Source of the DNA: Candidatus Obscuribacteraceae bacterium
GTDB taxonomy: Bacteria; Cyanobacteriota; Vampirovibrionia; Obscuribacterales; Obscuribacteraceae
DNA: 64,000 bases
NCBI GenBank assembly: GCA_044226015.1
Contig: JBGAHS010000008.1
Location: 509,462-573,461 of the forward strand
Direction: 5' to 3'
In this document: positions 25,119-64,000 of the stretch, one piece after another
Numbering within the stretch: position 1 is the stretch's first letter
Layout: each line of letters starts with the position of its first letter
Made by a program: the position numbers and the translations under genes
Notes under the pieces: generated by a model
Databases searched by the model: none
What the model saw: the letters and a program-made list of their open reading frames with translations, nothing else
Told to the model about the DNA's origin: nothing

Positions 25119-25263
25119 TAGCGCAAGTGAACGGCGATGGCCACATGCATGCGTTCCTCAATTAATCTGCCTATGAGAGTTTTCTTTGACACTCTCAGTC
25201 AAATTCACATCTCGAAACCTAGACAAGAAAAGCTTCTCTGCGCCATTCTCAAGCAAAGTGATG

Positions 25264-25640
25264 CAGTCCAATTCAAGAACTACACCGGTACCGTTGCAGT
25301 TTTCCTAAAGCCACAGTGCTTTGAGCGGCGCTCGTTTCGACGATGATCAGAAAAACACTTGTGAATATCTTCGCCAAGAAATTAGCAGTCCAATTTCAGA
25401 AACTGCACCGGTACCGTTGCAGTTTTCCAAAATTCTAAGACCTTTGGTAGCAGGTGGTTTCGCCAGGAATCAGAAAAACACAAGAGATCTATTACTGTAA
25501 GAAAAACAATAGTCCAATCAAAAGACTGCGCCGGTACCGGCGCAGTTTCTAAAAGCGCCGATTCGTTTGGTAGGAGGGCGTTTTATGCCCAAGCAGAAAA
25601 AGCACCAAGAATATCTTCGAAAAAGCTTCCCAGTCCAATT
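25264..25640. repeat. Array of three ~123-bp diverged units (plus the start of a fourth), each with a palindromic core
   Basis: AGTCCAAT recurs at 25265, 25387, 25511 and 25632. Cores are aactacaccggtaccgttgcagtt (25278), aactgcaccggtaccgttgcagtt (25401) and the perfect palindrome actgcgccggtaccggcgcagt (25525). CAGAAAAA recurs in each unit. Confidence 0.85.
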
Positions 25641-28685: not shown

Positions 28686-29654
28686 CTACTGTTGCTGCTG
28701 TTCTTGCTGTTGTTTCAACTGCTGAATCTGTTCATCTATATTCCCAGAAAACACAGGAATATTAAGTGCTTCGGTTTTCTCAGCCGCCAGTTCTGTCGGA
28801 ATCGACTCTAGCTGCTCGGACTCCACGACTACATCTATGTCTTCAGCCCCTTCACCTTTGTATACACCTTTATTCGGAGGTACGTCCTGGTAGTTTCGAC
28901 CAACAGCCACCTTAACAAAGTTCTCTCCCACCACGCAGTTATTGGTCGGGTCGATGCCGACCCAGCCGACCGAAGGAATGTAGATTTCAATCCACGCGTG
29001 GGTTTGAGCATAGCCACGAAATCTTTGCTTATCTGGATGGATATAACCGCTCACATAACGCGCCGGTATATTCAGCGCACGAGCTAAGCCCAAGAGAAGG
29101 TGCGTAAAGTCCTGACAGACGCCTCGTCGATGTTCAAGAATCTCAGTGATTGGGCTGGCAGCAGTAGTCACGCCCTTTTCGTAGGTGAACTCTTCATCAA
29201 CAGTGCGAAGCATAGCAAGCGCTAAATCGCCCAGCTTTATGCCGCCATTTTTTGGAGCTTTATCAACTAACTGGGCAGCAAGATCACGCAAGAGAGGCGT
29301 GTCCACCACCGGACCGCCGAACTGCAAGAAGTCATAAAGCGTGTAATCCCAAACAGTTTCTCCAGTCCACTCATCGGGAAGTCTGTGCAAATCAACTGTG
29401 TACTGGTTCGTCTCTACGACACTTGTGGCAATAATCTGTATTTTGTTGTGCAAAGCATTGATAGAAAATGCGTGAACAGAATTGCCCAACCAATCAAAGT
29501 AACTCTTAACATTCGAGGCAGGACCTATCGCCAGGCTGAACGAAAGGCGATGTTGATGAGCTTCTTGTCGGGGTGCCATTCTCAATTCCATCACCGATTC
29601 GTTGATGTAATCGGAATACAAAAGGTCTGTCTGATGTTTTATAGATAAAAGCAT
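28686..29654 (-). CDS. Transglutaminase family protein (Bact_transglu_N + transglutaminase core) with Gln-rich tail
   Basis: GVCQDFTH (Cys), THAW (His), DPTNN (Asp), GRNYQDVPP; ends QQLKQQQEQQQQ. Confidence 0.93.
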   Translation of the reverse strand: MLLSIKHQTDLLYSDYINESVMELRMAPRQEAHQHRLSFSLAIGPASNVKSYFDWLGNSVHAFSINALHNKIQIIATSVVETNQYTVDLHRLPDEWTGETVWDYTLYDFLQFGGPVVDTPLLRDLAAQLVDKAPKNGGIKLGDLALAMLRTVDEEFTYEKGVTTAASPITEILEHRRGVCQDFTHLLLGLARALNIPARYVSGYIHPDKQRFRGYAQTHAWIEIYIPSVGWVGIDPTNNCVVGENFVKVAVGRNYQDVPPNKGVYKGEGAEDIDVVVESEQLESIPTELAAEKTEALNIPVFSGNIDEQIQQLKQQQEQQQQ

Positions 29655-29663
29655 AATTTCACT

Positions 29664-30710
29664 TTAGTGCAGGAAGTAGGAACGTTGAATGGCTGAGGCT
29701 GCCTGTCCGGTGTTTTCGAGAATTTGCCGCAGAACGTATTTTAGCCCGGCGCCACCAAATTCACGCGACTCAGCGTACTCGAGCTGAGAACTCAAGCGAC
29801 CCAAAACGCGCTCAGCGTGGTCAATCTCCAAAGGATGAACAGCCATTGCAATACCGGCAACAGCATCTTGAGCTTGCTTCACACAGTAACGAATAGAGCG
29901 AGGAGATTCTTTATCAAGAATCAGAAATGCAGCCAGTCTTTGCGGGTCAAGGTCTCCAACGTGCCTTCGACGAAATGCTTCAATTGAACTACACGCACGC
30001 AAGACAGCCATCCATCTGATGTTGTTCAATGGTGTTTCCAACACACTTTCGCCCCTGAGAATGTCGAACTTTGCCTCGATAGTTCGACAAGTCATATCGA
30101 CGCGTTCTAAATATTTCGCCAGCTGGATAAACTGCCAACCTTGACCGTGAGGCAAAGTTTGGTCCGATACACCCTGAAACAACATTGAACCCATCATCAC
30201 AGACTGGAATATTTGTTGAGGGCTCTCTTCTAATCGCTGCCTCGCATCATCTGCGAGTAACGACCAATACAGCGTGTTCAGAGTCTCCCACATCTCAGCG
30301 GAAATTGACTCACGAATACTTCTTGCATTTTCACGTGCTTTAGTAAGGCAATTGATCAGGCTGTTTCGATTTCGCGAATCGAAAGTCATAAAATCGCATA
30401 CACGCTGACCTATATTTCCGCCCGAATGCGAAAGCACTTGCTGACCTTCAGGCGTATTCTCCAGTCGCAAAATTCGAAATACACCCTGATATTCCTTCTC
30501 TTGCATGGAATGAGCAAGTTCACCAAGGTCCATCAACATGTTGTAGTTGACCCACACCACACGAGCCACGTGCTCGGCACGCTCCATGTAACGACTCATC
30601 CAATACATAGATTCGGCTACACGAGCTAACATCGGACGCCCCGTCGGACTGCGAGGAACGCGCCGCTCGCTGACCATAGAAACTAGAGTAGGCGCAGACT
30701 GAGTAGTCAT
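29664..30710 (-). CDS. Alpha-E (DUF403) domain protein
   Basis: MLARVAESMYWMSRYMERAE, ARENARSIRE, YLERVD and PRSIRYC motifs; start may be 30710 or 30767. Confidence 0.93.
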   Translation of the reverse strand: MTTQSAPTLVSMVSERRVPRSPTGRPMLARVAESMYWMSRYMERAEHVARVVWVNYNMLMDLGELAHSMQEKEYQGVFRILRLENTPEGQQVLSHSGGNIGQRVCDFMTFDSRNRNSLINCLTKARENARSIRESISAEMWETLNTLYWSLLADDARQRLEESPQQIFQSVMMGSMLFQGVSDQTLPHGQGWQFIQLAKYLERVDMTCRTIEAKFDILRGESVLETPLNNIRWMAVLRACSSIEAFRRRHVGDLDPQRLAAFLILDKESPRSIRYCVKQAQDAVAGIAMAVHPLEIDHAERVLGRLSSQLEYAESREFGGAGLKYVLRQILENTGQAASAIQRSYFLH

Positions 30711-30769
30711 TGCCCACTCTTCTTTTTTGAAATTGCCTTTTTTGTTTTCTGTTTCTGCTTCCGGCACGA

Positions 30770-32206
30770 TTAGTTTGTCTCCTCAAGAACCCAGGTGTCT
30801 TTGCTGCCACCACCTTGCGAACTGTTTACGACCAGGCTGCCTTCTTGAAGAGCAACTCTGGTTAGTCCACCTGGAGTCACGACAACTTTCTTACCGAACA
30901 AAATATACGGACGCAAATCAACTCGCCGACCTTCGAAGTGATCGTCTACAAGACTTGGACACTGACTGAATTCTACGACTGGTTGCGCAATATAATTTCG
31001 CGGGTCTTGTGCAATTCTTTTTGCAAATTCTGCGCGTTCACTGGCTGTGGCTTGATGACCCATCAACATCCCATAGCCTCCAGATTCGTTTGTAGCTTTC
31101 ACCACAAGCTGGTCTAGATGCTCAAGCACATACTTCTTATCTGAATCTTTCGCACACACGTAAGTAGGAACATTGTTCAGAATAGGCTCTTGTTTGAGAT
31201 AAAAGCGAATCATATCTGGAACATAAGGATAGACTGCTTTATCATCAGCAACACCAGTTCCTACTGCGTTTGCCAACGCTATGTTTCCGCAGCGATAAGC
31301 ATTCATCAAACCAGGAACGCCAAGAATACTATCTGGTCTAAAGCAAAGCGGGTCGAGGAAGTCATCATCGATTCTGCGATAAATCACATCTACCAAACGC
31401 AAACCAGCAGTCGTTCTCATATAAACTTTGCTGTCATCGAAAATCAAGTCTTTGCCTTCGACAAGCTCAACACCCATTTGCCGTGCCAAAAAACTGTGCT
31501 CATAGTAAGCAGAGTTGTAGATGCCCGGCGTTAACACCACGATGTTAGGGTCGTCAGTTCGCGAAGGAACCAATTCTTTGAGACATTGCAAAAGATTGAA
31601 TGGATAGTCCTCTACAGACCTCACGGAATATCGTTCAAAAAGTTTTGGCATCACGCGCTTCATAACAGCACGATTTTCGATTACGTAACTGACACCACTG
31701 GGAGTGCGTCCATTATCTTCAAGAACGAGATAACTTCCATCGCGATCGCGAATCAAATCAGTTCCGCAAACATGAATATAGATATCGTTAGGCACATTCA
31801 CATGAATCATTTCGCGCCTGAACATCTTGGCGCTGTATATCATTTCAGCGGGAATGATCTTCTCTCGCAAAATATTTTGCGAATGATAGATGTCTTTGCA
31901 GAACATGTTCAGCGCAATAATGCGTTGCTCAAGACCCTTCTCTATTTTTGCCCAATCAGTCGCTGGCACAATTCGCGGTACAAGATCAAACGGAAAAATA
32001 CGTTCAACGCCAGACGCATCTTTGTACACTGTAAAGGTGATTCCCTGATTTCGAAACGCAATGTCAGCCATTCGGCGACGGCGCTGGAATGACTGATCGT
32101 TGAGGCTAGTCAATTGACCAAAAACGGGCTCATAATGAGGACGTGGAACGCCCTTTTCAAGAAACATTTCGTCGAAAAGACCGTTTATTTCGTATTTGTG
32201 GAACAT
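30770..32206 (-). CDS. Circularly permuted type 2 ATP-grasp protein
   Basis: GITFTVY, PFDLVPR, LEDNGRTPSGVSY, YRRIDDDFLDP, VVNSSQGGGSKDTWVL. Confidence 0.95.
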   Translation of the reverse strand: MFHKYEINGLFDEMFLEKGVPRPHYEPVFGQLTSLNDQSFQRRRRMADIAFRNQGITFTVYKDASGVERIFPFDLVPRIVPATDWAKIEKGLEQRIIALNMFCKDIYHSQNILREKIIPAEMIYSAKMFRREMIHVNVPNDIYIHVCGTDLIRDRDGSYLVLEDNGRTPSGVSYVIENRAVMKRVMPKLFERYSVRSVEDYPFNLLQCLKELVPSRTDDPNIVVLTPGIYNSAYYEHSFLARQMGVELVEGKDLIFDDSKVYMRTTAGLRLVDVIYRRIDDDFLDPLCFRPDSILGVPGLMNAYRCGNIALANAVGTGVADDKAVYPYVPDMIRFYLKQEPILNNVPTYVCAKDSDKKYVLEHLDQLVVKATNESGGYGMLMGHQATASERAEFAKRIAQDPRNYIAQPVVEFSQCPSLVDDHFEGRRVDLRPYILFGKKVVVTPGGLTRVALQEGSLVVNSSQGGGSKDTWVLEETN

Positions 32207-32317: not shown

Positions 32318-33211
32318 TCATTTTCCAATTTCCATGTGCGTCGAAGAGAAGGTCCGACCAAGCGCATTAGCCCTTGTCTCATCGACTACTTGCCGACCCG
32401 CACCGTAGGTTATTTGGACATGGATGCTCTCAACCACATGCCCAGCGGAATCCTTCTTCTGGATGTCAACATGCCCACCCTTCCCATCCTGGTCGGTCCC
32501 AGTTTCAATTCGAAAACGGGTTGTGACTCTGCCAAGTGAATCTTTTACAACGGCATCAGTTAAGGTTCCATTTCCTGGAAGATTACTTGTATCGAAGTGG
32601 ACAAGCTCCCTTGCTGGACCATTTCCATCCTTGACGACAAAATCGCCACTTTGACTTGAGGCTTGCTGATAGAGATCAAGTGTTTTTACCTCGGACCCAC
32701 GCGAATTAGCATATTTGGTAACAGCTTCCGCATGAATCTGCGCTCCGTTAACCTGCGCTGAAAGCTGGCTGGACCGCTCTAGCCTACCGTTTCGATCCTT
32801 TACTGTGGATGTTGAATTGCCCTGAGCATCCGTCTCGGAATGAGTGCTTCGAAGACGCCAACCGTTGTAACCAGTACTTTCTGTATCGAAATTGTCTGAG
32901 CCGCCTGCGCCTTTGCTCTGCTTGCTCACCTGACAAAGAAGGACCTGGTCACGCACATTACTGACCGTTGCAGTTGTCACTTTGGAACCACCTTGATCTG
33001 TGGTTTCAATGTGTGTTTTCTGAACAGGAATACCTCTGGCATCTCGTCGCGTGATATCTGCAATGCCGCCGGAAATTTGCTCATTTAGCCGCAGCTCAAC
33101 ATTATTACCAAGGCTGAGATAGACAAGATTCAGGCCTTTTACACCCAACTTGTCCTCACCAGCAAGCTGAAGATTTACCTCTTCATGCTCAATATCAAAA
33201 TTTTCCGGCAT
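32318..33211 (-). CDS. Hypothetical protein with repeated beta-hairpin units
   Basis: 297 aa; GAGGGGAG SD-like sequence upstream; recurring (K/R)DxxG motif. Confidence 0.7.
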   Translation of the reverse strand: MPENFDIEHEEVNLQLAGEDKLGVKGLNLVYLSLGNNVELRLNEQISGGIADITRRDARGIPVQKTHIETTDQGGSKVTTATVSNVRDQVLLCQVSKQSKGAGGSDNFDTESTGYNGWRLRSTHSETDAQGNSTSTVKDRNGRLERSSQLSAQVNGAQIHAEAVTKYANSRGSEVKTLDLYQQASSQSGDFVVKDGNGPARELVHFDTSNLPGNGTLTDAVVKDSLGRVTTRFRIETGTDQDGKGGHVDIQKKDSAGHVVESIHVQITYGAGRQVVDETRANALGRTFSSTHMEIGK

Positions 33212-33343: not shown

Positions 33344-33427
33344 TCGGCGGGACAGGATTTGAACCTGTGGTGCTTTTTACGGTCTTGTTTTACAGACAAG
33401 TGCGATCGTCCTCTCCGCCACCCGCCG
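33344..33427 (-). tRNA. tRNA-Tyr(GUA), long variable region, C1:G72, A73, CCA not encoded
   Basis: CGGCGGG TG GCG-GAGAGGACGAT-CGC A CTTGT-CTGTAAA-ACAAG ACCGTAAAAAGCACC ACAGG-TTCAAAT-CCTGT CCCGCCG A. Confidence 0.85.
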
Positions 33428-33494
33428 CCATACTCTTAAATTTCCTCCTGTAATTGATTGGGCTTACTCAGCTCAAAACAGATAACACCATATA

Positions 33495-33571
33495 TGGTGC
33501 CGACGGGCGGATTCGAACCGCCAAAACGCTAGTTCTTAGCCAGCGATGTCTGCCACTTGCATCACGTCGGC
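33495..33571 (-). tRNA. tRNA-Leu(AAG), short variable loop, CCA encoded
   Basis: GCCGACG TG ATG-CAAGTGGCAGA-CAT C GCTGG-CTAAGAA-CTAGC GTTTT GGCGG-TTCGAAT-CCGCC CGTCGGC ACCA. Confidence 0.85.
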
Positions 33572-33575
33572 AAAA

Positions 33576-33649
33576 TCCCGAAAGTCAGATTCGAACTGAC
33601 ACTGAACTCGGCTTAAACGAGCCGCCTCCTGCCGTTGGGCTATTTCGGG
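33576..33649 (-). tRNA. tRNA-Leu(UAA), short variable loop, C1:G72, CCA not encoded
   Basis: CCCGAAA TA GCC-CAACGGCAGGA-GGC G GCTCG-TTTAAGC-CGAGT TCAGT GTCAG-TTCGAAT-CTGAC TTTCGGG A. Confidence 0.82.
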
Positions 33650-33651
33650 GC

Positions 33652-33948
33652 ATCGCAAAATCGGATCCCGCGAGCATCGTGAAATCAGATCCCGCTAACT
33701 TCGCAAAATCGGATCCCGCGAACATCACAAAATCGGATCCCACGAACATCGCAAAATCGGATCCCACGAACATCGCAAAATCGGATCCCACGAACATCGC
33801 AAAATCGGATCCCGCAAACTTCGCAAAATCGGATCCCGCAAACTTCGCAAAATCGGATCCCGCGAACATCACAAAATCGGATCCCACGAACATCGCAAAA
33901 TCAGATCCCACGAACATCGCAAAATCAGATCCCACGAACATCGTGAAA
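33652..33948. repeat. 24-bp tandem repeat, 12 copies plus a partial
   Basis: Unit atcgcaaaatcggatcccacgaac with minor variants, abutting the 5' end of tRNA-Leu(UAA). Confidence 0.95.
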
Positions 33949-34040: not shown

Positions 34041-34064
34041 TCAATAGAGATAATACAGCAGCAT
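34041..34064 (-). CDS. Putative leader peptide MLLYYLY
   Basis: GGAGG (34074-34078), 9 nt, then ATG CTG CTG TAT TAT CTC TAT TGA; upstream of and co-oriented with the Leu/Leu/Tyr tRNAs. Confidence 0.75.
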   Translation of the reverse strand: MLLYYLY

Positions 34065-34176
34065 GATAAAAATCCTCCAAAGGGCTCATGATGAGACTCA
34101 AGACCTCGTCGCGAGCAGAGAAATAAGATTACTTCAAAGAATACTTGAACTTCACTTCACTACGACGAGACAGCGC

Positions 34177-34242
34177 CTAAGCTAAATAATAGCTTGGGAG
34201 AGGCGCCACGAGGCTCAGCAGTAGTGTATTCATCTTGTTCAT
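34177..34242 (-). CDS. Putative leaderless leader peptide MNKMNTLLLSLVAPLPSYYLA
   Basis: ATG begins 7 nt after a -10 box; 6 Leu and 2 Tyr in 21 codons; 3' half folds into a hairpin. Confidence 0.55.
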   Translation of the reverse strand: MNKMNTLLLSLVAPLPSYYLA

Positions 34243-34248
34243 GATTTC

Positions 34249-34276
34249 ATCATAGCATCATAAACGAATTGATCAA
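34249..34276 (-). promoter_or_regulatory. Sigma70-type promoter with extended -10
   Basis: TTGATC (34271-34276), 16-nt spacer ending TGC, TATGAT (34249-34254). Confidence 0.6.
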
Positions 34277-34297: not shown

Positions 34298-35449
34298 CTA
34301 TTTATTTCTCGTCTCTTCTGACTTGATCTTAGCCACTGCAGATTTGAATTTAGCAACTTCATTAGTCAAACCAAACTCATTCAACTTGTTCGCAACCAAT
34401 TCAATACATTCCTCAGACCTGCTCGAAATTGCGGGAGTCGCCGCGAGCGACTTCGCAAATCTCTCAGCATCAATGAGTTTGCCTGTCGCCAATTCACCAC
34501 TGAGAATCATCGAAGCATACTGACTTATCTCCATCCATAGCGGATTTGATTTTTCTTGTTTGCTTGTGCTGATGCAATAGAAATTCTCAGGCGTTTGAGA
34601 ATAGAAGCCGTGATAAAAACCTTCCGGCACAAAACGATGGTGGAGAGTTGCAGGCAGAGCGGCACGGAGCTTATCGGATATTGCGTAGAGATAAACAGAA
34701 TCAAAAATCGAACAAATTCTTGCTATTCGCAAAGATTTTTCATCCTGAGGCAATCCATCAAACAAACGCAAATCTGGAACACTCACTTCAAGATCATGGT
34801 CTGAAATAAAGCGCGCCATCATTACGACCGACTTGGAAGTAGAGCCGGCAGGAAAAGCGGCAGCATGTGCATTGTTGGCGGACCGAATGGCAGCATCTAC
34901 GCTAGCTCTGAACTTTTCCCTGACACCGCTAACCAGTTGATTATTACGATCAAACCCTGGCAAAAACGCTTGTTCATTGAGAATACGCATCTCGCCCTTC
35001 GGATTTATTTCCAAAAGAACTTGCATCTGCCCCGGAACATCTGCCACCCAGGAATTAGATAAGTCCCGCGAAACCTTGCTATACCAGGACCACCAGCCGC
35101 CCTTTGACGAACGATCTTCCCGGGTTATACCAGCCGGAGTAATCATCAAAGTCCCGCCATCCTCTTTTGATTCTTTTAAAAGATCTTTCTTAGTTTCACC
35201 TTTGATGAATAGATGTTGTCCGAAACCAACTGCTTTGATTCCAACACTACAGTTATCGTATGCTGTAATGTCGGAACCGCCAAACGCAAGGTCGTAATAG
35301 CTAGCAGCCCCCTTTAGAGTGTAGCTACCATCAGTGTTAAGTATCGCCTTGATGTGTGCCTCTTCAACTGCCTGAGACAACGCAGGCTGAGCTTGCTGAA
35401 AGAGTACGAACAAAGACAATGCGAATGAACTCGCAAACCTCGTATTCAT
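34298..35449 (-). CDS. Hypothetical secreted protein
   Basis: GGAGGAG SD; signal-peptide-like MNTRFASSFALSLFVLFQQAQPALSQA. Confidence 0.8.
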   Translation of the reverse strand: MNTRFASSFALSLFVLFQQAQPALSQAVEEAHIKAILNTDGSYTLKGAASYYDLAFGGSDITAYDNCSVGIKAVGFGQHLFIKGETKKDLLKESKEDGGTLMITPAGITREDRSSKGGWWSWYSKVSRDLSNSWVADVPGQMQVLLEINPKGEMRILNEQAFLPGFDRNNQLVSGVREKFRASVDAAIRSANNAHAAAFPAGSTSKSVVMMARFISDHDLEVSVPDLRLFDGLPQDEKSLRIARICSIFDSVYLYAISDKLRAALPATLHHRFVPEGFYHGFYSQTPENFYCISTSKQEKSNPLWMEISQYASMILSGELATGKLIDAERFAKSLAATPAISSRSEECIELVANKLNEFGLTNEVAKFKSAVAKIKSEETRNK

Positions 35450-35460
35450 ATTCTCCTCCC

Positions 35461-36195
35461 TTAGATTTTCTTCTTAAGCACAAACCAATTAGTCTGCTTA
35501 TCTGTAAATATTTTGCAGTCACCAATACTTATTAGCCTGCCAGTTTTGCCGTCGCGGTACCAGCCCTCGCTCCAGGGTCCCATATCCGTATAAACTGCGT
35601 CTTCGACTCCCATTTCGACTAGATCTACGCCAAATTCGTTAAAAGTAATTTCTGTCCTACTTTCTATTACGGCAGCCGAGCCATCCTTTAGGAGGGCAAT
35701 GCATCGCCTCTGAAAATGCGATTTATCAACAAAGCTCTCCGCATGTCCACTCTTAACTACTTGAAACTGTTGAAAAAAAGATTCTTGCTTGGACTTCAGG
35801 CGCGCTATAAAATCCGAATTGAGACTAGCACCACTATTGGTATCAAATATCTTGCCTTTACCCGCTTCCATTTCGAGGGCACCGCCCATTTTCTTGTCTA
35901 TCAGGTTCTCGTTAAAAACGGCACCGTGACTGGAATAGAGCCCACAGAGACCGCCTTGTTGACTTGTGAATGCAGCAGGAATGCACAACAAAACATTGGC
36001 ATCCTTTTTTAGCGGACGAGAAAGCTCAAAATCCATTTTTGCATTGTTAGCAAAAATCATTCTATATGCTCTGCCCGAACTGCAAACCAGAGATTTAGCA
36101 CTTAGCGTGACAGTTTCATCTTGAGATAATGCGGCACTTCCAGCAAACAGGGTAATTAAGGCACCGCAAAGAATGAGCTTCAGTTTGTTTATCAC
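35461..36195 (-). CDS. Secreted protein, phosphodiester-glycosidase (NAGPA)-like
   Basis: Signal peptide; FQRRCIA...LVEMGVEDAVYTDMG resembles the NAGPA-family A-x-x-L-D-G-G region. Confidence 0.6.
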   Translation of the reverse strand: MINKLKLILCGALITLFAGSAALSQDETVTLSAKSLVCSSGRAYRMIFANNAKMDFELSRPLKKDANVLLCIPAAFTSQQGGLCGLYSSHGAVFNENLIDKKMGGALEMEAGKGKIFDTNSGASLNSDFIARLKSKQESFFQQFQVVKSGHAESFVDKSHFQRRCIALLKDGSAAVIESRTEITFNEFGVDLVEMGVEDAVYTDMGPWSEGWYRDGKTGRLISIGDCKIFTDKQTNWFVLKKKI

Positions 36196-36216: not shown

Positions 36217-36792
36217 CTAGCTTAACTGAATCTTCTCGACCGTTTCCTCAACAGTATTGAACGGGCTATCCATGAGCAATTCATCGCTTGAACGCAGAGC
36301 TGCCCGTTGAAAAGAAGGGAAGCAATAACAAATTTCGCCATCGTCAGTCACATCCACATGGCACACACTGGTTGCGGAAAGCCTCTCAAATGCGCGCTTA
36401 ACGTCGGAGATGCGCATACCGCTTTCTAGAGCCATTTCAGACACAGTGATAATTCCGCCTCGACTCTTCGCTTTATTCAGAGCCGCTTGTTCTTCCTGAA
36501 GTTCCTTTATAGCAGTTCTCTCTTTCAAGCGTCCGCGAAGTTGGTAAAGTCCCGTACATAAAATGCCAGTGAGGAATGCGATCAAACCGAGTTGGGACGG
36601 AACCCCATGCCGAGTCGTTCCCGTCAGAATCTCACCAATGTAAGTGACGATTAAACCGGCGGAGAAAATAGATAAGAACATCAGAAAGCCGAAGAGCACA
36701 TCAGCCAGACCAGAGCGACCAGCACTCTTGCTGGCAGCTAGTAGTTTCTGCTCACCTGTCACTTTGGTTGTTTTGCTTGTCATCAAATTCAT
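36217..36792 (-). CDS. Two-TM membrane protein with C-terminal winged-helix-like domain
   Basis: Two hydrophobic segments, then GGIITVSEMALESGMRISDVKRAFERL...GEICYCFP. Confidence 0.7.
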   Translation of the reverse strand: MNLMTSKTTKVTGEQKLLAASKSAGRSGLADVLFGFLMFLSIFSAGLIVTYIGEILTGTTRHGVPSQLGLIAFLTGILCTGLYQLRGRLKERTAIKELQEEQAALNKAKSRGGIITVSEMALESGMRISDVKRAFERLSATSVCHVDVTDDGEICYCFPSFQRAALRSSDELLMDSPFNTVEETVEKIQLS

Positions 36793-55513: not shown

Positions 55514-56472
55514 AAAACACTTCGATTCCAACCGCCCTTTTATTGCTAGCGTGCGCTTCTGCTGCTTTAGCAGCCCCGTCAGCAAGCAACTCTTCTACAG
55601 GCAATTCAACCGGATCCAACGCTACTAGTTCGAAAGCAGTTGGAGCCAATTCAGCCGGAGCCAACGCTACTAGCTCGAAAGCAGCTGGAGCCAATTCAGC
55701 CGGAGCCAACGCTCCTAGCTCGAAAGCAGCTGGAGCCAATTCAGCCGGAGCCAACTCTACTAGCTCGAAAGCAGCTAGAGCCAATTCAGCCGGATCCTCA
55801 ACTTCTGCCTCCAAAAACGTGGCTCCAGAAAAGAGTTCCAGCAAGCCTGGCACTGCAGATCAAGCGACTGCGCCTAAACCTCCGGCTGCGGACGGAAAAG
55901 CAGCCACAGCCAAAGCTGGGACTGCGAAATCAGCAGCAGCAAACGTTGGAAGCACAAAACCCGCTGTAGCAAAGGCTGGTCCTGCAACTGCCAAAACAGG
56001 AACGACGAAGACCTCCTCCAATCTAAAACCGTCGCCAGTTACAAAGAATGCAAGCATAAAAGTTCCGGTAAAGGGTCCATCTACCAAAGCACCAGCAACG
56101 GTGGCAGCAGATGGTACACCTATTTGGCTTGATGTGAAATCAGCGAAACTTGCCGCTAAACTAAAAAACAAACCAATTCTTGCAGACTTCTACACTGATT
56201 GGTGCCACTGGTGCAAGGTGATGGATCGCACAACTTATCGAGACTCCGAAGTGCTCAATTACCTCGCAGCGAACTATGTTTGCATGAAGGTAGACGCACA
56301 AGATGGCGGAGACGGACAGGAACTAGCCACCAGATTTGGTATCTCAGGATTCCCAACCACGCTAGTCATTCTGCCAACAGGAAAGCCCCTTGCAGTTGCT
56401 GAGGGCTATCGCGACAAGCCAGCATTCATGAAGTTCATGAACGCTGTAGCGAAGCTACCTAAGGGAAAGTAA
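55510..56472 (+). CDS. Secreted thioredoxin-family protein with long Ala/Ser/Lys low-complexity N-terminus
   Basis: Signal peptide; DFYTDWCHWCKVM active site; GFPT cis-Pro loop. Confidence 0.9.
   Translation: MKNTSIPTALLLLACASAALAAPSASNSSTGNSTGSNATSSKAVGANSAGANATSSKAAGANSAGANAPSSKAAGANSAGANSTSSKAARANSAGSSTSASKNVAPEKSSSKPGTADQATAPKPPAADGKAATAKAGTAKSAAANVGSTKPAVAKAGPATAKTGTTKTSSNLKPSPVTKNASIKVPVKGPSTKAPATVAADGTPIWLDVKSAKLAAKLKNKPILADFYTDWCHWCKVMDRTTYRDSEVLNYLAANYVCMKVDAQDGGDGQELATRFGISGFPTTLVILPTGKPLAVAEGYRDKPAFMKFMNAVAKLPKGK
55602..55797 (+). repeat. In-frame 45-bp tandem repeat, about 4 copies
   Basis: Encodes ANATSSKAAGANSAG variants. Confidence 0.9.
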
Positions 56473-62419: not shown

Positions 62420-64000
62420 TTATTTTCCAACCACCATTCTAATTATCTGGAATAAAACTGGCATGCCACCAGCTGAAAGAGGATTACCTATACTTGAGTT
62501 GGTTCCTAAAACTGCTTGGGGTCCGGCGGTTACGGTTGCTCTATTACCGATGGCATTTGCTACCTCTGCGCCTTGGAAAGAACCTGCTGGCTGCATTATC
62601 GTTATGTTAGTTCTGGGTCCGGATAACCTCTTAATTTCTGAAAGAGTTTGAGGGTTAATGGGAGAACTTCTTAGGAATATGTCGCTAGCGGATCCGTTCA
62701 TCATGTTGCCAGTCGACGGACGACCGTTTATTAGATGCTCCGGCGTACCTGGCGTAACGACATCACGAAAATTGGGTGCGGCCTCCATTTCTCCGAATAT
62801 ATTTATTTTCTGCCCAACTTGATTGGGATTAAGAAGCGCAAGGGCCGCTGTTGCTACTGAATCTGCAATACTTTTCCCAAGCTTGTTTAGTGGGGAGATG
62901 GGATCGCCCCAGTCGGTTTTTCCAAATGGTCTTCCACTGGACAAACCTCTAAAAAATTCCAGAGTTTCTCGTAGGATCGGATCATCGATGGAGTTTTGAA
63001 ATACAGGAGAGCTAGGTGCTCGATAAGAGCCGGTTAAGCCGAAGGAATCCGAAAAATTCACAGCATCATTTGCAACGTAAGCATATAGATTAAGATCTCC
63101 AGCATCAAACCCAATGGGATCTGGCTGCAAGAACCTTCCTATTGACGGTGAATAAATGCGTGCCTTGTAATTGTACAGCCCCACTTCAGAGTCATAGCGT
63201 TGCCCTGTATAGCCGAATGGCGTGCTGGTAAGGCTTGGGGTTTCACCAAAGATTCCGTATTCCCACTTCAGAGTCATAGCGTTGCCCTGTATAGCCGAAT
63301 GGCGTGCTGGTAAGGCTTGGGGTTTCACCAAAGATTCCGTATTTGTAGCGATTCAAGACGGCACCTGAATTATCTGTGCGGGCAATCACTGATCCTAGCC
63401 TATCATGATGAAGGTAAGTCTTGGTAGAGCCAGAAATTTTGATGAGGATCTCGTCTGCCCTGTTTCCTCTGATATACCTGTTTACCAGCGCATCTCCGTC
63501 ATCAAATTCGGCAATCATCTGCTGCCCGTCATATAGGAAATTAGTCTCAGCAGAGTTGCTGGTCTTGCGAGCTTGCCTGTTGAGCGGATCAAGAATGTAG
63601 TCGTTAGTCGTTCCTCCAAGCACGACTAGAGTCATCCGATTGAGCACATCAAAAGTTGCTGCGAATGGTCCGCCGGTCAAGCAGCCATTTTTGTTGTAAG
63701 AATATCCGGTGCCCGCAACTGAGGGATACTGATTGAGGTTGTTCGCAGCGGAATACACCGTGGTGGCAGATGCACCTGGAGTCCAAACGAATGCCTTGTT
63801 GCTGCAAGACATGGCAATCGCCTGGTGCACTTTGTTATAACTGTACGCGAAGTTTACACTGCTTCCGGTGAACTCTTGATTCAGTGCAGTCAAATCATCA
63901 TTAATTGCGTATGCATAGTCGCATGTGCAGCCATTCTCATAGGTAACTAGAGTTCGCCTGGAGAGATCGTCGTAATCAAAATGGACAGCTGCCGTGCTGC
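62420..64000 (-). pseudogene. Rhs/YD-repeat toxin gene, 3' part, frameshifted by an 82-bp tandem duplication; open to the right edge
   Basis: YLHHDRLGSV, FGYTGQRYDSEVGLYNYKARIYSPSIGRFLQPDPIG, NLYAYVANDAVNFSDSFGL, then a variable C-terminal domain; split across ORFs 63243.. and 62420.. Confidence 0.88.
63180..63343. repeat. Exact 82-bp tandem duplication
   Basis: 63180-63261 equals 63262-63343 (cccacttcagag...gattccgtatt). Confidence 0.95.

Follow-up and report, generated by a model that had tools for sequence, protein, structure and literature searches.

A conserved Leu/Tyr-rich leader frame and a Shine-Dalgarno-like box precede accessory Leu/Tyr tRNA genes in a Rho-less bacterial lineage

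Little is understood of how bacteria adjust their supply of tRNAs to the demand for single amino acids. The stretch of Candidatus Obscuribacteraceae DNA analysed here (the window, 64,000 nucleotides; its genome is G000 below) contains a very short frame ahead of tRNA genes. A first-pass annotation had reported a seven-codon frame, here ORF2, made only of Leu and Tyr after its Met, behind a perfect Shine-Dalgarno (SD) sequence and about 390 nt ahead of tRNAs for only Leu and Tyr, and had taken it for the strongest single clue to a Leu/Tyr-sensing system. The frame and its SD were found as reported, on the minus strand, which the annotation had left unstated: the GGAGG occupies 34078-34074, nine nucleotides separate it from the ATG at 34064, and six Leu/Tyr codons lead to the TGA at 34043-34041. 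The distance was also correct, with the first tRNA starting at 33649, 392 nt on from ORF2, and most of the intervening sequence being a 24-nt repeat. The features of this part of the locus are as follows.

34074..34078, minus strand: GGAGG (SD2), 98 nt past the ORF1 stop, equivalent to the ribosome-binding site position (99 nt) of a protein gene in G114
34041..34064, minus strand: ORF2, seven-codon Leu/Tyr frame, its composition not conserved
33651..33943, no strand: 24-nt tandem repeat, 12.2 copies, one locus in the genome and unseen in homologous leaders
33576..33649, minus strand: tRNA-Leu(TAA), short variable arm, 74 nt
33495..33571, minus strand: tRNA-Leu(AAG), short variable arm, 77 nt, A34 anticodon
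33484..33501, minus strand: small hairpin with an AT-rich loop, overlapping the CCA end of tRNA-Leu(AAG), with look-alikes behind many related leaders
33344..33427, minus strand: tRNA-Tyr(GTA)

The composition of ORF2 is unlikely to have arisen by chance. Among 197 short frames (6-15 aa) of the form GGAGG-N5..11-ATG in the 8.19-Mb genome it was the sole one with two or fewer amino-acid types after Met, and six Leu/Tyr codons directly after an ATG were found at 3 of 265,761 ATGs genome-wide. When the 233-nt region was shuffled by dinucleotides, such a Leu/Tyr run arose in 2 of 20,000 cases and a run combined with an SD-like word in none. The SD itself had been overrated: five of its bases pair with the organism's own 16S tail (-9.3 kcal/mol), compared with 10-11 bases (-16 to -20 kcal/mol) in five of six homologues retaining the box. 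On its own terms the earlier proposal would fall if there were no initiation at 34064 and homologous loci lacked the frame; the second half of this held, since an all-Leu/Tyr frame was present in 0/6 SD-keeping homologues and the SD was absent from two of the nine Leu-tRNA loci (G097, G098). In a near-identical strain the first Tyr codon of ORF2 reads Phe (a single RNA contig, depth 5.1). Two of the three ORF2 Leu codons are CTG, which has no standard match in the anticodons TAA or AAG, and the Leu-Leu and Tyr-Tyr codon pairs of ORF2 recur inside ORF1. A pattern scan of metagenomes returned 62 stretches, none with a tRNA downstream. In the genome collection 7 of 35 matches were tRNA-linked; with identical leaders and tRNA order these were apparently the same loci as in our comparison genomes, and they therefore give no independent support. 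As the key sensor, the seven-codon frame is secondary and specific to this genome.

The conserved element that tracks the tRNAs lies 113 nt further upstream, at 34242-34177, and it displaces ORF2 as the principal clue. The idea of a Leu/Tyr-sensing system survived in part: a translated Leu/Tyr leader does appear to control the tRNAs, and the likely sensor is this conserved 21-codon frame, ORF1, rather than ORF2. The leader region contains the following features.

34249..34257, minus strand: extended -10 promoter element; a similar hexamer at similar spacing in 8 aligned leaders (by eye)
34177..34242, minus strand: ORF1, likely sensor, a conserved leader peptide of 21 codons (6 Leu, 2 Tyr)
34221..34226, minus strand: segment 1, within ORF1, predicted to pair with segment 2 (5/300 shuffles as strong)
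34158..34169, minus strand: segment 2, directly past the ORF1 stop, predicted partner of segment 1 or segment 3
34117..34123, minus strand: candidate anti-SD, weak in this genome (best partner in the stretch; 45/300 shuffles)
34105..34111, minus strand: segment 3, predicted to pair with segment 2 when the ribosome stalls (32/300 shuffles in G000, ≤5/300 in 7 of 9 leaders)

Because ORF1 starts just 7 nt past the -10 element, the transcript is likely leaderless. Homologous ORF1s of 17-21 codons also begin a few bases past a -10 element and lie ahead of related short-arm Leu/Tyr clusters. A covariance model of the ORF1 leader gave 32 matches in 28 of 107 genomes, and inspection of every match placed nine ahead of Leu(+Tyr) clusters, 16 ahead of a single tRNA-Tyr and four ahead of phosphoesterase-like genes, the remainder being a mixed array in G025, its upstream duplicate and one match without an intact leader. 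The Leu and Tyr counts of ORF1 follow the downstream tRNAs. Six to eight Leu codons were present in all nine leaders ahead of Leu-tRNA clusters and one to three in all 20 ahead of tRNA-Tyr alone (16) or phosphoesterase-like genes (4), while at least two Tyr codons were found at 22/22 loci with tRNA-Tyr and at most one at 7/7 loci without it. This tally was made by eye, carries no statistic, omits the three remaining matches, and includes a partly masked leader (G067) and a tRNA-Tyr that was identified by eye rather than called (G098). Kin are not independent in it, nor are the leader counts, as two genera supply 15 of the 16 Tyr-only loci. The mixed-array leader in G025 is an exception, with two Leu codons against four downstream Leu tRNAs. 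Helix 1:2 constrains some of the ORF1 Leu codons, and these are present in non-tRNA leaders too. In general, ORF1 has the short, conserved and codon-rich character of the leader in a transcription attenuator, a description that ORF2 fails on conservation.

The leader RNA is predicted to form two mutually exclusive helices. Helix 1:2, between the 5' part of ORF1 and the segment after its stop, had 87.7% of cells paired, compared with 16-42% in slid controls, and two-sided changes at 5 of 17 pairs (7/500 shuffles), figures counted on the same alignment from which the structure was derived. The alternative helix 2:3 is predicted to be weak in G000 and in G006 (13/300 shuffles), the two exceptions among the nine leaders, and ranks 6/9 in cross-pairing in G000. 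When a stalled ribosome was masked, the minimum-energy fold contained 2:3 in G000, G002, G013, G067, G068 and G097, and lacked it in G003, G005 and G006. Folding further predicted that, at 10/10 loci, opening SD2 would be cheaper when the ribosome has stalled late in ORF1 than when it has reached the stop codon. Stall-specific opening exceeded 24-25 of 25 shuffles of segment 2 at 7 of 9 loci; it was not supported in G000 (0.4 kcal/mol; 17/25 shuffles as high) or G002 (6/25).

Of 16 family leaders, two (G003, G005) had a clear 3:4 hairpin followed by a U-run and G006 had a looser candidate, compared with 4/4 Thr-family controls, and with so few clear terminators the output in many members is unexplained. 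No clear intrinsic 3:4 terminator was found in G000 outside the 24-nt repeat. A second terminator under ORF2 control was also considered and rejected: in G000 the downstream fold was the same whether the ribosome mask represented initiation or stalling, and G005 and G068 showed nothing of the kind. Rho was found in 0/151 genomes of the class by a search that was positive in 8 of 14 controls, and Rho-dependent (tnaC-type) leader control was rejected. T-box and other Rfam RNAs were rejected as well, the sole window matches at gathering score being the three tRNAs. RNase J is present in G000 (match over cut-off), providing the 5'-3' exonuclease against which an SD-bound ribosome of the hbs or STAB-SD type could stabilize RNA. 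The Leu/Tyr family is therefore odd in that it is mostly terminator-free in a Rho-less lineage and keeps a translational-attenuator architecture ahead of untranslated genes. This terminator-poor, Rho-less, translational-attenuator-like arrangement suggests that the family is controlled through RNA stability.

We next consider SD2, the position of which is conserved. An SD-like box lies 94-125 nt past the leader stop at the ten loci measured (seven tRNA, three phosphoesterase), including 7 of the 9 Leu loci; the distance is 98 nt in G000 and 99 nt in G114. Five of six SD2 homologues at tRNA loci pair with the 16S tail over 10-11 bases, and all six SD-keeping tRNA homologues have ATG or ATT exactly 7 nt past the box. 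The frames that follow are unrelated between loci. In G114 and G098:C5 SD2 directly opens a protein gene, the start of which is similar to the Metallophos proteins found in G013 and G094; in G000 it opens the seven-codon frame. Besides its absence from G097 and G098, SD2 is missing from G006, and none was seen by eye at that place in the other 15 Tyr-only loci. SD2 is therefore dispensable for the leader to precede tRNAs.

The same leader family, with mixed codons, also precedes calcineurin-like phosphoesterase genes at L247, L260, L246 and L263; the L260 and L246 proteins match Pfam Metallophos. An NCBIfam search found no match for three downstream proteins of relatives. These leaders may possibly serve as a general translation-stress switch for a repair-type enzyme.

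Taken together, we propose that SD2 is the likely output of a ribosome-stalling switch whose sensor is likely ORF1, and that this switch would raise the level of spare Leu/Tyr tRNAs when Leu and Tyr codons are read slowly. We give this reading a probability of about one half. In the folding model, segment 1 would pair with segment 2 when no ribosome is present. A ribosome that reaches the ORF1 stop would cover segment 2, leaving the downstream RNA to hide SD2 and, in G003 and G005, also to form the terminator. One stalled on the late Leu/Tyr codons of ORF1 would instead free segment 2 for helix 2:3, which would open SD2 and, at loci possessing a terminator, abolish it. We infer that the leader is translated, that its output is induced under shortage and that a second ribosome, loading on ORF2, would shield the pre-tRNA from 5'-to-3' decay by RNase J. 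ORF2 would thus probably be a ribosome landing pad, and its all-Leu/Tyr composition a local tuning in G000 that would hold the second ribosome in place under the same shortage. As the SD2 mask is weak in G000, the Leu/Tyr frame may stand in for it locally by making the ribosome dwell longer. Carried to its full extent, the model would be a two-ribosome relay in which a stall on the leaderless Leu/Tyr leader unmasks a second ribosome-binding site and a Leu/Tyr-only mini-ORF parks a shielding ribosome on the tRNA precursor in a starvation-dependent manner, as one of at least three codon-matched leader families that set tRNA supply from ribosome speed in a Rho-less lineage. This fuller version is speculative, and we hold it only tentatively.

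Three other explanations bear on the same observations. The GGAGG could belong to a terminator-like stem, as its 3' arm, with a U-rich tract behind it; ORF1 would then control termination there and ORF2 would remain untranslated, its composition arising incidentally from the T-rich tract or from ORF1 words copied into it. The shared Leu-Leu and Tyr-Tyr pairs and the Tyr-to-Phe change in the near-identical strain fit this explanation, as do the 5-7 T residues in the 8 nt after GGAGG in G000, G003 and G005, the non-SD arm with a T-tract at the same place in G006, and three Thr-family leader terminators that likewise end in GGAGG and a T-run. The G006 stem, however, was not significant (168/300 shuffles), and a terminator arm would not be expected to show the long 16S complementarity and fixed start-codon spacing of the homologues or to open a real gene in G114 and G098:C5. 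Shuffles that preserved T-richness also yielded such a frame at the low rate given above (2/20,000). We therefore consider a terminator arm unlikely. If ORF2 were the main Leu/Tyr sensor, as the first-pass annotation had it, and had taken over in G000 from an ORF1 switch that had decayed, stalling on ORF2 would control tRNA output directly. Its unique and improbable composition speaks for this, together with the prediction that SD2 is almost open in G000 (1.8-3.7 kcal/mol) and the number of Leu/Tyr residues in the first five codons after the start at the seven SD-bearing tRNA loci, which is 5 in G000 and 4, 3, 2, 2, 0 and 0 in the six homologues (by eye). Yet ORF1 is intact with its 6 Leu and 2 Tyr codons, the fold downstream of ORF2 in G000 did not respond to the ribosome when initiation and stall masks were compared, and neither the homologues (0/6) nor the Tyr-to-Phe variant preserve the frame, so that we find a sensor role for ORF2 improbable.

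Alternatively, SD2 could be a vestige of a leader that came from a translationally attenuated, phosphoesterase-type operon in which tRNA genes replaced the protein gene, SD2 and ORF2 being idle at the tRNA loci. The four family members ahead of phosphoesterase-like genes would be explained in this way, in two of which (G013:C48 and G094) no long frame follows SD2 and the gene is located beyond it, as would the absence of SD2 from many tRNA loci and the eroded look of the G000 locus, which has two Leu tRNAs rather than three to five and a repeat insertion. An idle SD2 would nevertheless leave the Leu/Tyr-only frame unexplained, and the longest 16S matches and strongest predicted switches occur at tRNA loci in three genera (G003, G005, G068). 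We regard this history as improbable too. The ribosome-stalling switch, with ORF1 as likely sensor and SD2 as likely output, is the reading that we prefer.

This proposed switch has counterparts in several known systems. The thrL, ilvL and leuL leaders, and pheM before pheST, are multivalent leader-peptide transcription attenuators, with which the locus shares a short ORF rich in the sensed codons and exclusive 1:2 and 2:3 helices beside the stop codon. It differs from them in that the targets are tRNA genes, the transcript probably lacks a 5' leader ahead of ORF1, only 2 of the 16 leaders in this family have a clear 3:4 terminator (4/4 in the Thr family), and there is a second, masked SD. The ermC and cat systems are translational attenuators, and here too stalling on the leader is predicted to expose an SD further downstream, which opens a protein gene in G114 and G098:C5. 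In contrast to ermC and cat, the SD in G000 opens a seven-codon frame ahead of non-coding genes, the signal is apparently tRNA supply rather than an antibiotic, and unmasking is unsupported in G000 itself. For Bacillus subtilis hbs mRNA, an SD-bound ribosome is described in part of the published account as a roadblock to RNase J1 (PMC5737220). A strong SD, a frame that seems unimportant and the presence of RNase J are points of likeness (PMC5737220), whereas hbs, in the same part of that account, is a protein-coding mRNA with no leader switch (PMC5737220), and at our locus such protection is conjectural.

In the main texts on the Anabaena trn operon (L-array), its 26 tRNA genes are controlled by TrcR, a repressor acting at the promoter (PMC8421152, PMC10272220). 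There, as here, accessory tRNAs occur in a cyanobacterial relative, plausibly for translational stress, and the repair-type gene rtcB is co-regulated in Anabaena where phosphoesterase-like genes are found in our family. The Anabaena array is switched as a block by its repressor (PMC8421152, PMC10272220), while in our lineage small clusters have translated leaders; three tRNAs lie behind the leader here, and neither main text contains the words 'leader' or 'attenuat' (PMC8421152, PMC10272220). Three tRNAs also fall short of the long array typical of the TrcR type; an 18-tRNA array is located elsewhere, on C10. A literature search at record level found no description of leader-peptide control of tRNA genes. 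The new elements are the lineage, the masked SD with its mini-ORF, and a single leader family ahead of both tRNA and enzyme genes.

Housekeeping tRNAs for five Leu anticodons and for Tyr are encoded elsewhere in the genome, and the Leu/Leu/Tyr cluster is therefore accessory. The Leu tRNAs of the cluster measure 74-77 nt, against 80-88 nt for the housekeeping Leu set. An AAG anticodon is rare in bacteria; it is also present in G002, and tRNA-Leu(AAG) may require A34-to-inosine editing. The exact word of the small hairpin at 33484-33501 was found at 3 of 265 loci, every one a copy of this locus; relatives have variants, which were seen by eye behind leaders in G006, g15 and g20 genomes, G094, G013:C48, G025, and G000 C1 and C10. 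This hairpin could possibly be a processing or antitermination signal. A further GGAGG is located at 33448-33444, with an ATG 12 nt on at the 5' edge of tRNA-Tyr.

The 24-nt repeat (33651-33943) was ruled out as a dispersed element by its single locus. Its frame is open on both strands and it forms stable hairpins. A GC-rich repeat with a unit of about 20 nt also precedes the 18-tRNA array on C10, and the window contains further tandem repeats at 25263-25556 (period 123 nt), 55602-55794 (45 nt) and 63180-63343 (82 nt). The flanking ORFs (34298-35449, 32318-33211, 35461-36195 and 36217-36792) had no match in a Pfam search. A three-gene run on the minus strand (28686-32206) is headed by a circularly permuted ATP-grasp gene (Pfam). 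An RNA run from the near-identical strain (word share 0.23) gave four contigs over 19.9 kb, two of them covering the leader with the tRNA-Leu pair and the others a nearby gene. These contigs carry no strand, level or end information and may be DNA; we therefore excluded them as support, and gaps in their cover are uninformative.

Two further codon-matched leader families lie ahead of other tRNA clusters in the same genome. A Thr-Thr-Gly tRNA cluster (L039, G000:C1:808072-808500; homologues L146-L148 and L150) has a Thr/Gly/Phe-rich leader and a classical terminator, and in G002 Lys codons in the leader accompany a tRNA-Lys in the cluster. Exceptions in this family are Phe codons without a tRNA-Phe in G000 and G025 and the lack of a leader within 420 nt in G096 (L149). 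A Glu-Asp-His cluster (L040, G000:C9:547013-547500; homologues L176-L194) has a His/Asp/Glu/Gln-rich leader of about 41 codons with an SD, and Asn, Tyr and Leu codons arise in the leaders where matching tRNAs join. Here the exceptions are a Tyr codon without a called tRNA-Tyr in L187 and L194, and several leaders were seen in part. That leader codons change as tRNA genes come and go points to a direct feedback from decoding speed to tRNA amount.

Longer arrays can also have a leader. The 13-tRNA array in G025:C56 (L042) follows a 17-codon leader made mostly of the array's amino acids, which ends 8 nt ahead of the first tRNA and has a duplicate about 600 nt upstream. A 10-tRNA array in G121:C12 (L151) has a leader and a terminator-like hairpin. 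In two of seven viral matches (contigs L227 and L231, by eye) a short leader and a terminator-like hairpin come before tRNA arrays of the Leu/Ser/Tyr or Tyr/Leu kind.
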